Assembly (NCBI GenBank): GCA_963667365.1
Contig: OY763324.1
Span: 4,414,509-4,478,508 of the forward strand
DNA length: 64,000 bases
DNA from: Candidatus Poribacteria bacterium
GTDB taxonomy: Bacteria > Poribacteria > WGA-4E > WGA-3G
Direction of reading: 5' to 3'
In this document: in pieces, positions 24,316-27,375 of the stretch
Layout of the letters: each line of letters opens with the position of its first letter
How positions within the stretch are numbered: the first letter of the stretch is position 1
Notes under the pieces: generated by a model
The model's database searches: none
Told to the model about the DNA's origin: nothing
What the model saw: the letters and a program-made list of their open reading frames with translations, nothing else
Position numbers and translations under genes: made by a program

Positions 24316-27300
24316 ATGCCACAAATCAACCTAAAACCAACCCACAAACCCATCAAAGACTACTACAAAACCCTGCAGCAATACACCGACCAGAACATCA
24401 CCCATGAAGGCGCGGTCAGTGCACCCTTCGGCGCGCTCCTCGACCACTGCGCAAAAAAGATAGACGCAACATTCTCCCAACAATTCCAAATGACCACCCA
24501 CGCAGGAAACCGAATCGTCATAGACGGAGCCGTCACAAAACTCGGACTACCAGTCGCCTATTGGGAAGCAAAAGACATCCACGACGACCTCACACAAGCC
24601 GTCCAACAGAAACGACAAGCAGGCTACCCAACAGACAATATCCTATTCCAAACACCCGAACGCGCAATCCTCATACAGAACGGACAGACAACACTCGACA
24701 CAGACCTCACCGATCCAGAAAATCTCGTCACCACCTTACAACGCCTATTCGCATACACAACCCCAGTCCACGAAGATTGGGAAAAAGAAGTCGCAAACTT
24801 CAGAAACCGCGTCCCTCACCTCGCAAAAGAGATGATGCACCACATCGAAGAACGGTACGACGCAGACACAGACTTCAAAAACGCATTCAACGGATTTTAC
24901 GACACATGCCGATCCGCAATCAACCCCAACCTATCCCGAACCGCTGTTGAGGAGATGCTTGTCCAGCATATACTCACAGAACGCATCTTCCACAGAGTGT
25001 TCCAGCACTCCGATTTCAAAAGACGCAACATCATCGCAAGAGAGATTGAGAAGGTTATTGACATACTCACGAGCGATAAGTTCAGCCGCGAGGAATCCCT
25101 AAGTGCACTTAACCCGTTCTATGACTCCATAGAAAACGCCGCCAAAAACTGCCACGACTTCACACAGAAACAGCACCTACTCAACACCTTCTACGAGCAG
25201 TTCTTTCAAAGCTTCGCAGAAGATGTCGCAGACACACACGGCATCGTCTACACACCGCAACCGATAGTCGACTTCATGGTCAACAGCGTATCCCACATCC
25301 TCAAAGCCGAGTTCGGCGTGTCCTTGTCTAATAAAGGTGTTCATATTATCGACCCTTTCGTCGGCACCGGCAACTTCATCGTCCGACTGATGCAGGACAT
25401 ACAAACCACCGCCTTACAACACAAATACCAGCACGAACTCCACTGCAACGAGGTCATGCTACTGCCATACTACATCGCCAGCCTCAACATAGAGCAGGAA
25501 TACTACCAACGCACCCGCAGCTACCTCCCGTTTGACGGCATCGCACTTGCCGACACCTTTGAACTCCTTGAAGATAAGCAGATGCAACTCTTTTCACAGG
25601 AAAACACCGACCGCGTCGAAAAGCAGAAGGACACAGACATGTTCGTCGTCATCGGCAACCCACCCTACAACATGGGACAGGTCAACGAGAATGACAACAA
25701 CAAAAACCGCAAATATGAAACGGTAGACAAACTGCTGAAGGATACCTATTCAAAGGACTCAAAGGCAACAAATAAAAACCCACTTTCAGACCCGTATGTC
25801 AAAGCGATTTTGTGGGCATCAGAACGGATTGGAAAAGACGGGATCGTAGCGTTTGTAACGAATAACGGTTTTCTTGATGGAATTGCTTTTGATGGAATGC
25901 GGAAACATCTGGCACAGGATTTTGATACGATTTACATTTTAAATCTGAGTGGAAACGTCCGTAAGAATCCGAAGTTATCAGGCACAACACATAACGTATT
26001 TGGAATTCAGGTTGGAGTAAGTATTAACTTCTTTATCAAAAAAAGTGAAAAGTCAGAAACTACGCAAATATTTTATGCTCGTGTTGATGAATATTGGCGA
26101 AAGGAACAGAAATATCAATTTCTTGAATCAAAGCAGCACTACCAAAACATAGAATGGCAACAAATCACACCTGATAAGCGTCATACATGGATCACCGAAG
26201 GACTCCATGCTGAGTATGATACTTTCATTCCAATTGGAAGTAAGAAGGCTAAAACAGGAAAAGGAACAGTGAATGGTGTGATTTATAATACCTATAGTCT
26301 GGGTGTCTGCACGAGCCGTGATGCATGGGTATACAACTTCAACCGAAACACTCTCATTGAGAATGTCAAGCGGATGAGTAGAAATTACAACACAGAAGTT
26401 GATAGATGGCAGCGAAGAGAAGATCTGGATATTAAAATTGACGATTTTGTGTTGTATGATGACGAAAGAATCAAGTGGAGTTCTACCTTAAAACGGCATC
26501 TTAAGAGTGGTCATATCGCAGAATACACAGATTCAAAAATAAGACATTCTGGTTATCGTCCGTTTACTAAAACAACACTTTTTTTTGACAATGTTCTTAT
26601 AGATCGACCAGGACTTTTCCGTTCTATATTTCCAACACCAGAAACCGAAACTGAAAATAAAGTAATTTGGCTTAAAGTAGGTGGAGATTGGCCAATGTTT
26701 GCATTATTGGTTAGCAATATTCCTGACCTGCTTCCACAAAGTGGTTCCCAATGCTTCCCCTTCTACACCTACGACGAAGACGGCACAAACCGCAAAGAGA
26801 ACATCACCGACTGGGCACGCGACGCATTCCGCAAACACTACAAAGACGACACCATCACCAAGTGGGACATCTTCCACTACACCTACGGCATCCTCCATCA
26901 TCCCGACTACCGCCAGAAATACGAAATGAACCTCAAGCGAGACCTACCCCATATCCCCTACGCACCCGATTTCCGAGCATTCGCAACCGCAGGTGCACAC
27001 CTCGCCGACATCCACATCAACTACGAGACCCAACCCGGACATCCCGAACTCAACCTACTCGAAAACCCCGATTTACCTTTAGATTGGCGCGTAGAGAAAA
27101 TGCGTCTATCCAAAGACAAAACCCAACTCAAATACAACGACTTCCTCACCATAGACGGAATACCTACCGCCGTCTACGACTATCGGTTAGGCACCCGATC
27201 CGCGTTGGAGTGGGTCATAGACCAATACCGCGTCAAGACAGACAAACGCAGCGGCATCATCAACGACCCCAACCGTCCCGACGACCCTCGTTACATAGTA

Positions 27301-27375
27301 CACCTCATCGGGCGCGTCATCACCGTCAGCCTCCGCACCGTCCACCTCATCAACAACCTCCCCCCTCTCTCATAG
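24316..27375 (+). CDS. MmeI-family (type IIL/IIG) bifunctional restriction endonuclease / N6-adenine DNA methyltransferase
   Basis: The most likely start is MPQINLKP. N-terminal PD-(D/E)xK motif: RIVIDGAV...AYWEAKD. Gamma-class amino-MTase motifs follow: motif I IIDPFVGTGNF and motif IV VVIGNPPYN. The C-terminal region (DYRQKYEMNLKRDLPHIPYAPDFRAFATAGAHLADIHINYE...) resembles the target-recognition and C-terminal domain of MmeI/type ISP enzymes. No separate R or S gene is adjacent. Pro/His/Arg-rich ORFs in other frames are artefacts. Confidence 0.65.
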   Translation: MPQINLKPTHKPIKDYYKTLQQYTDQNITHEGAVSAPFGALLDHCAKKIDATFSQQFQMTTHAGNRIVIDGAVTKLGLPVAYWEAKDIHDDLTQAVQQKRQAGYPTDNILFQTPERAILIQNGQTTLDTDLTDPENLVTTLQRLFAYTTPVHEDWEKEVANFRNRVPHLAKEMMHHIEERYDADTDFKNAFNGFYDTCRSAINPNLSRTAVEEMLVQHILTERIFHRVFQHSDFKRRNIIAREIEKVIDILTSDKFSREESLSALNPFYDSIENAAKNCHDFTQKQHLLNTFYEQFFQSFAEDVADTHGIVYTPQPIVDFMVNSVSHILKAEFGVSLSNKGVHIIDPFVGTGNFIVRLMQDIQTTALQHKYQHELHCNEVMLLPYYIASLNIEQEYYQRTRSYLPFDGIALADTFELLEDKQMQLFSQENTDRVEKQKDTDMFVVIGNPPYNMGQVNENDNNKNRKYETVDKLLKDTYSKDSKATNKNPLSDPYVKAILWASERIGKDGIVAFVTNNGFLDGIAFDGMRKHLAQDFDTIYILNLSGNVRKNPKLSGTTHNVFGIQVGVSINFFIKKSEKSETTQIFYARVDEYWRKEQKYQFLESKQHYQNIEWQQITPDKRHTWITEGLHAEYDTFIPIGSKKAKTGKGTVNGVIYNTYSLGVCTSRDAWVYNFNRNTLIENVKRMSRNYNTEVDRWQRREDLDIKIDDFVLYDDERIKWSSTLKRHLKSGHIAEYTDSKIRHSGYRPFTKTTLFFDNVLIDRPGLFRSIFPTPETETENKVIWLKVGGDWPMFALLVSNIPDLLPQSGSQCFPFYTYDEDGTNRKENITDWARDAFRKHYKDDTITKWDIFHYTYGILHHPDYRQKYEMNLKRDLPHIPYAPDFRAFATAGAHLADIHINYETQPGHPELNLLENPDLPLDWRVEKMRLSKDKTQLKYNDFLTIDGIPTAVYDYRLGTRSALEWVIDQYRVKTDKRSGIINDPNRPDDPRYIVHLIGRVITVSLRTVHLINNLPPLS

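Follow-up and report, generated by a model that had tools for sequence, protein, structure and literature searches.

Among described restriction–modification (RM) enzymes, the closest to the gene considered here is DrdV of Deinococcus wulumuqiensis (PDB entries 7lo5 and 7lvv). In its nuclease site D64 and E79 are metal ligands, mutation of the ExK lysine, K81, abolishes cleavage, and the site is completed by K94 and E25; its methyltransferase and target-recognition domain (TRD) share their origin with the Type ISP enzymes, and MmeI has been found to modify a single strand and to need multiple sites (10.1101/2021.01.06.425610). We analysed a 64,000-nucleotide stretch of DNA from Candidatus Poribacteria bacterium (assembly GCA_963667365.1, contig OY763324.1, positions 4,414,509 to 4,478,508 of the forward strand), hereafter the window, and in it the open reading frame (ORF) at 24316-27375. 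We put at roughly 0.88 the probability that this ORF encodes a stand-alone bifunctional Type IIL (Type IIG subclass) RM enzyme of the DrdV family, in an allele that differs mainly by replacement of a TRD cassette from its syntenic orthologue, protein P0002 on the related contig L001. The enzyme belongs to an already established fold, mechanism and class and to a very abundant family, and current understanding of these is left unchanged. Its parts are as follows.

24316-27375, + strand: complete coding sequence of the DrdV-family Type IIL RM enzyme, 1019 residues (from the ORF, DrdV entry 7lo5, PADLOC profile PDLC03621 and Foldseek)

24316-24765, + strand: N-terminal PD-(D/E)xK endonuclease domain, residues 1 to about 150 (from DrdV residue mapping, conservation and modelled fold)

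24523-24525, 24565-24567 and 24571-24573, + strand: codons of the nuclease residues D70, E84 and K86

24766-25167, + strand: helical connector (coupler), residues about 151-284, including a divergent patch at residues 158-169 (24787-24822; from Pfam ISP_coupler)

25168-26148, + strand: gamma-class N6-adenine DNA methyltransferase domain (from Pfam N6_Mtase and Eco57I)

25351-25377 and 25657-25668, + strand, within the methyltransferase domain: motif I (DPFVGTGNF) and motif IV (NPPY)

25669-25746, + strand: divergent patch of the methyltransferase domain, residues 452-477, plus the substitution P489A (from comparison with L001)

26149-26751, + strand: variable TRD core cassette, residues 612-812, presumed target-sequence determinant (from divergence from L001 and DrdV contact mapping)

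26752-27375, + strand: conserved C-terminal Type-ISP-like part of the TRD, residues 813-1019, plus stop codon (99.0% DNA identity to L001)

The ORF runs uninterrupted on the + strand from TTG at 24280 or ATG at 24316 to 27375. ATG 24316 is the likely start because relatives, which are 1015-1077 residues long, open with the same N-terminal MPxLNLKP. A preliminary description, made from the sequence alone, had proposed a single 1019-residue chain with nuclease and N6-adenine methyltransferase motifs, and all of these were found where it had placed them: IVIDGAV at residue 67 (containing D70), WEAKD at 83 (containing E84 and K86), DPFVGTGNF at 346 and NPPY at 448. With motif I ahead of motif IV and a C-terminal TRD, the arrangement is that of the gamma class.

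Sequence and fold searches both led to DrdV. Pfam matched ISP_coupler at residues 161-280 (E=1.1e-19), N6_Mtase at 285-548 (E=5.7e-15, with Eco57I also matching) and Type_ISP_C at 656-997 (E=3.7e-97), and PADLOC called REase_MTase_IIG (E=1.3e-232), with the 1024-position profile PDLC03621 covered over its full length (positions 25-1012). In a phmmer search of PDB sequences the best match was DrdV (7lo5/7lvv, E=2.9e-182, residues 14-1016 against 7-1025), and when an AlphaFold model built from a 120-sequence alignment was submitted to Foldseek the top six matches were all DrdV chains, with LlaGI and LlaBIII next. The preliminary description had spoken of an MmeI-like Type IIL RM fusion whose C-terminal TRD resembled those of MmeI and Type ISP enzymes; the single-chain Type IIL/IIG fusion and the Type ISP resemblance stand, and the link to the MmeI sequence family falls away. 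MmeI_Mtase was the only MmeI domain to match, and did so at E=0.0014 with 18.3 bits against a Pfam cutoff of 27; MmeI_N, MmeI_hel, MmeI_TRD and MmeI_C gave nothing at E≤0.1. Neither MmeI nor BpuSI appeared among the PDB sequence matches, and MmeI was absent from the 50 fold matches listed. Given a sub-cutoff MmeI_Mtase match alone and homology to DrdV along the full length, we reject membership of the MmeI sequence family.

The best PADLOC score, however, went to PDLC03597, where the match covered the C-terminal 900 positions of a 1646-position profile of Type ISP length. Together with the Type-ISP-like character of connector, methyltransferase and TRD, and with the "helicase" names that NCBI gives to some relatives, this might point to a decayed LlaGI/LlaBIII-like enzyme that has lost its helicase motor and survives as a non-functional remnant. 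We regard that as highly improbable. The N-terminal 150 residues form a complete nuclease that aligns end to end with DrdV, itself an active helicase-less enzyme, and at least 120 relatives of 1015-1077 residues share the architecture, which also has a profile of its own length in PDLC03621. Type ISP enzymes have a RecA-like superfamily 2 helicase/translocase domain, whereas Pfam found no helicase domain here, in agreement with the preliminary description's view that this is not a Type ISP enzyme. LlaGI and LlaBIII (PDB 5ffj and 4xqk) are homologous in connector, methyltransferase and TRD (E=1e-156 and 1e-143, window residues 153-1017), with alignments that start at window residue 153 against their residues 553 and 717, after the motor; the window nuclease does not align to Type ISP profiles, whose matches begin at residue 152-153. 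Nor was a helicase-domain remnant seen in the neighbourhood, which was scanned with Pfam and PADLOC over the large ORFs from 14.6 to 37.9 kb, about 10 kb either side of the gene (ORF 10774-13791 with Pfam only). Two full-length helicase-less relatives, P0019 and P0119, are publicly annotated as "DNA helicase" and "DEAD/DEAH box helicase", labels probably carried over from Type ISP enzymes.

The nuclease site of the DrdV-type enzyme is intact in the window protein. In the parsed HMMER alignment E25, D64, E79, K81 and K94 of DrdV correspond to E31, D70, E84, K86 and K99, so that all five are conserved. An alignment of 120 homologues shows no variation at D70, E84, K86 and K99, nor at G350 and G352 of the FxGxG motif and N448-Y451 (NPPY), and conservation of 90% or more at E31. 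In the 79 full-length relatives that were translated from genome contigs, all of these positions, E31 included, have the same residue. The modelled nuclease domain, with predicted local distance difference test (pLDDT) values of 68-92, fits the isolated DrdV chains 7lvv_C and 7lvv_D with a root-mean-square deviation of 1.7-1.8 Å and a target-normalised template-modelling (TM) score of 0.88-0.90. In the methyltransferase, N448, Y451 and F562 align with the adenine-pocket residues of DrdV.

By analogy with DrdV, the methyltransferase and TRD would bind a target that is short and asymmetric, one adenine of which would be flipped into the NPPY pocket, and slow S-adenosylmethionine-dependent methylation of a single strand only would protect the sites of the host. 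Simultaneous binding of several unmethylated sites, as on incoming DNA, would lead the DNA-bound monomers to oligomerise, and N-terminal PD-(D/E)xK nuclease domains supplied in trans would then cleave both strands downstream, a short and fixed distance away. Because there is no translocase domain, the enzyme is expected to cleave at a fixed distance through oligomerisation and not by translocation and collision.

Several observations weigh against this assignment and its mechanism. Every step of the mechanism is carried over from DrdV, an enzyme only about 37% identical, and multi-site licensing is proposed by homology only. DrdV F304, which stacks on the flipped adenine, is V311 in the window protein. 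At the DrdV dimer interface D224, E230, D231, K251 and K259 all differ, and R252 (window R258) and Y396 (window Y403) are the only interface residues kept; K8, R12, D15, E41 and R46 of the nuclease–nuclease interface all differ as well. With the oligomer-interface residues mostly changed, details of assembly may differ in the window enzyme. Over its full length the AlphaFold model is of low quality (mean pLDDT 62, predicted TM score 0.33, methyltransferase region below 50), and for this reason only the superposition of the nuclease domain was used. Lastly, no Shine–Dalgarno sequence precedes ATG 24316, so that the transcript may be leaderless, and the sole promoter candidate, TTGACA-17-TACCCT, is weak; a consensus promoter scan did not call it because its -10 hexamer matches at three of six positions.

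The changed oligomerisation interfaces, and the name "N-6 DNA methylase" that NCBI gives to close relatives, would also suit an orphan methyltransferase with a dead nuclease, serving an epigenetic or PglX-like role without restriction. We think this quite unlikely, given that the five nuclease residues are kept and are invariant or nearly so in both sets of relatives, and that the nuclease fold is confidently modelled and superposes on DrdV. The alignment of the D-EXK residues that the preliminary description had suggested as a check found D70, E84 and K86 conserved, so the enzyme does not come out as nuclease-dead. The same description had set the protein apart from PglX of the bacteriophage exclusion (BREX) system, rightly as far as the searches go: no PglX or BREX model was among the PADLOC matches, and no brx or pgl genes were found within about 10 kb, where a flanking BREX set was looked for among the large ORFs.

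The second element of our reading, that the allele of this DrdV-type enzyme carries a replaced TRD cassette, comes from the comparison with L001. Window protein and P0002 are 89% identical overall, with the differences clustered: at the protein level identity is about 97% outside the cassette and about 50% inside it, and at the DNA level 97.1% over residues 1-611, 62.9% over 612-812 and 99.0% over 813-1019 (Fisher p=4e-117). All five mapped TRD base-contact positions of DrdV fall inside the divergent block. Point mutation cannot explain 63% identity next to DNA that is about 98% identical, and since the divergent segment is the TRD core that holds every mapped TRD base contact, residues 612-812 are likely a recognition cassette exchanged by recombination with a diverged family member, the effect of which would most likely be a different specificity. 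Two smaller patches also set the alleles apart. At the nuclease–connector junction, residues 158-169 have eight codon differences from L001, seven of them nonsynonymous, and in the methyltransferase residues 452-477 differ, with P489A at the position of the DrdV base contact K488. Outside the cassette 63 codons differ from the orthologue (37 synonymous, 26 nonsynonymous), a pattern compatible with a working gene under purifying selection.

Mapping of the DrdV contacts bears on what the enzyme may recognise. All five TRD base contacts of DrdV (N673, R721, Y764, D803 and K807) are replaced in the window protein, at residues 667-810, and five of the seven methyltransferase-domain base contacts differ (Q485, K488, N548 and R554 substituted, D564 in a gap), N448 and K486 being kept. 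Because the two sets of positions differ to this extent, the target of the window enzyme is very probably not CATGNAC, that of DrdV.

No near-identical donor of the cassette was found, the best identity being 65% in per-region comparisons with 119 homologues, in tblastn against 81 loci and the window, and in a cassette-only database search. The 80 related loci compared for the cassette comprised 78 from the genome collection together with L001 and L002, the latter a contig with the 74%-identical relative P0004. In a collection of 5.8 billion protein clusters, queried with the full-length protein and with the cassette alone (53 candidates scored), residues 612-812 were at most 65% identical to anything retrieved. 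The cassette of P0002 likewise has no near-identical donor, its best match being 71%, so that the swap may have gone in either direction. There is no second or silent cassette copy in the window by tblastn, and the surroundings of the RM gene showed neither inverted repeats nor a recombinase; for these reasons nothing points to a programmed shufflon.

Exchange of this kind is not confined to one allele pair. The cassette region is the least conserved part of the family alignment, and in 51 of 117 family pairs with backbone identity of at least 90% the cassettes are less than 70% identical; judged from these alignments, swaps of the recognition cassette recur across the DrdV-type family. That family is large, with at least 7982 database proteins at E≤1e-20 in a full-length search and at least 590 stretches encoding relatives in a collection of species-representative genomes, where the best match was 70% identical. 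Nearly all of the nearest relatives come from metagenome-assembled genomes of Candidatus Poribacteria, and some from Latescibacterota and Caldilineaceae. A single Poribacteria chromosome of 4.6 Mb (OZ241845.1) holds six intact paralogues whose backbones are 84-92% and whose cassettes are 45-85% identical, and five loci are listed for OX639973.1. We also considered concerted evolution within genomes as a general rule and rejected it: for just 6 of 49 copies from multi-copy genomes was the nearest backbone neighbour in the same genome.

Enrichment of RM genes in sponge symbionts has already been published (PMC5649159). The gene and its relatives offer a concrete case behind that enrichment: a single-chain family present in many intact copies whose recognition modules have diversified. 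Somewhat short of an even chance, in our estimate, is the wider proposal that the TRD core specifies an as yet unseen target and that Poribacteria hold batteries of DrdV-type enzymes with fast cassette exchange and co-varying patches, which would raise strain-level barriers. If that proposal were true, a symbiont might carry up to six or more DrdV-type enzymes whose cassettes of about 200 residues outpace the rest of the gene, the patches in the methyltransferase DNA-contact loop and the nuclease–connector linker would co-vary with cassette exchange, and the result would be barriers to phage and to DNA exchange within the dense sponge microbiome. The window allele and P0002 form a natural pair, and could serve as a template for mapping the residues that set the target in DrdV-type enzymes and for new Type IIL reagents.

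The neighbours of the RM gene are four WD40-repeat proteins, ParA and a ribbon–helix–helix (RHH) protein, a 452-residue protein, an extracytoplasmic function-type sigma factor and a sulfatase; the WD40 and sulfatase genes are in keeping with Poribacteria. The features around the gene to which the text refers are these.

14649-16631, 17351-19672 and 20514-21569, - strand, and 28505-30376, + strand: WD40 beta-propeller genes, within 16 kb around the RM gene

22377-22997 and 23002-23259: parA and the RHH gene

24200-24315, + strand: unique upstream region conserved with L001 (near-identical alignment between about 24200 and the ATG, whereas the repeats before it fail to align)

24280-24285 and 24303-24308, + strand: candidate promoter, TTGACA, a 17-nucleotide spacer and TACCCT, then 7 nucleotides to the ATG (read by eye)

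31711-33069, + strand: 452-residue protein

The large ORFs scanned out to about 10 kb included no helicase, brx or pgl gene, separate methyltransferase or other defence gene, and the gene is thus stand-alone over that distance, as the preliminary description had it. The gene order of L001 matches that of the window (WD40, ParA, RHH, RM, WD40, 452-residue protein, sigma factor, sulfatase), with collinear neighbours 95.5-98.9% identical in DNA. Around the RM gene homology extends from about 24200 to 27381, ending 6 nucleotides past the stop codon, where repeats begin. Because L001 is syntenic and homology spans the gene and its collinear neighbours, the RM gene, on this comparison, is stably placed in two genomes or more. 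Neither Pfam nor PADLOC matched the 452-residue protein, which is 99% conserved in L001 (17985-19343). The WD40 gene at 20514-21569 has a signal-peptide-like N-terminus, and the L001 orthologue of that at 28505-30376 is more diverged (95.5% DNA identity) than the other neighbours (about 98-99%).

The DNA immediately upstream of the RM gene might suggest a different origin. Type II RM genes can behave as addiction modules, and the gene might be cargo of a plasmid-like or other mobile element marked by ParA-RHH, chiefly a selfish addiction module and secondarily a host defence. The ParA and RHH genes lie directly upstream (22377-23259), an iteron-like GTATAC array stands before parA, and the ParA-RHH-RM trio is kept in L001. 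The pairing of ParA-RHH with an RM gene was seen in the window and L001 alone, however, and in none of 79 paralogous loci, on which ground we also rejected the idea that ParA-RHH regularly accompanies the family. No RM gene is present at those more distant ParA-RHH loci that have enough flanking DNA, the large ORFs scanned include no integrase or transposase, GC content is unremarkable, and the locus is syntenic between window and L001 with neighbours 95-99% identical. Mobile cargo is therefore unlikely in our view, and the reading of a stand-alone DrdV-type RM gene is retained.

We also sought, through ParA, a ParA-RHH…WD40 locus without the RM gene in metagenome contigs: the close loci, L082 and L083, lie on short contigs whose sequence stops in the repeats or ahead of them, and the distant loci with sufficient flanks, which lack an RM gene, are not syntenic. 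Metagenome contigs L082-L092 also carry the ParA-RHH pair. In the window the pair has a strong AAGGAG ribosome-binding site, and about nine 8-nucleotide units of the form (T/C)GTATAC(A/G) lie directly upstream of it (22282-22356), with a second short array of GTATAC type at 21717-21750, about 560 bp further upstream. The array and the ParA-RHH (ParG-like) pair look like the centromere/operator site of a type Ib partition cassette in the chromosome. The 74%-identical relative P0004 (L002, 10001-13075) is solitary among transporter and sulfatase-maturation genes, flanked by NMT1-type binding protein genes and an ATP-binding cassette (ABC) transporter permease and adjoining a run of formylglycine-generating enzyme (FGE)-sulfatase genes, a setting that looks like an insertion into a transporter cluster.

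Repeat mosaics flank the RM gene at about 23260-24200 and 27382-28212. The preliminary description had drawn attention to two large flanking mosaics and had pictured a defence gene dropped into a repeat landscape. The mosaics are real, but they are not specific to this gene: a 25-nucleotide core, GTAGGAGGGAACTCCGATTCCCGAC, occurs 43 times (38 exact copies, where chance alone would give none) in the intergenic gaps of the stretch from 1.3 to 57 kb. Since the same repeats fill gaps throughout the window and L001 keeps its RM gene in an identical slot, also with repeat-filled spacers of about 1 kb around it, the idea that the gene was dropped in is unsupported. Although the genes of window and L001 are about 98% identical, the intergenic repeat blocks are scrambled and rearranged between the two and match many places. 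The gaps contain short modules on both strands, for example at 19778-20428, 21768-22230, 30468-31600 and 33106-33637. GTAGGAGGGAACTCCGATTCCCGAC is a hairpin core, with a variant hairpin GGTCGCGACC..GGTCGC, and further modules include GGGGAATGC..GCATTC hairpins and CGTGATTCAGACA. A 17-nucleotide unit, TTACATTACATTCTGTA, forms tandem arrays inside the mosaics at 21827-21928 and 30485-30552, with single or partial units elsewhere, such as 23383-23433 and 24026-24093. An Rfam scan of 19-34 kb matched neither the repeats nor anything else, and short-read contigs of relatives end at or before the mosaic repeats. The RM coding strand itself has a marked excess of A and C (at 24-25 kb, GC skew -0.31 and AT skew +0.33), a composition that over 24001-27000 gives rise to long spurious Pro/Arg/Thr-rich ORFs in other frames, for example 24561-24950 and 26751-27473.

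Set beside the known systems, the window enzyme is nearest to DrdV, with 1019 residues against 1029 and the same four-part order, and with the five nuclease active-site residues, NPPY and the N, Y and F of the adenine pocket kept. It differs from DrdV in its overall sequence, in the mostly changed charged residues of both oligomer interfaces, and in its setting in sponge-symbiont Poribacteria, where the family occurs in many paralogues. MmeI and BpuSI are of the same functional class and share the single-chain order of nuclease, methyltransferase and TRD, but have no significant sequence-family match to the window enzyme, and PglX/BrxX of BREX gave weak, low-TM fold matches only (E about 1e-4 to 1e-3, TM about 0.1). 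In Type I HsdS and in the Type IIG enzymes of Helicobacter and Campylobacter, the TRD is replaced in genes that are otherwise near-identical, which yields strain-specific specificities. By analogy, the cassette swap and the paralogue expansion described here resemble these known TRD-shuffling phenomena, with the difference that in the window a single internal cassette of about 200 residues appears to be exchanged within a DrdV-type TRD.

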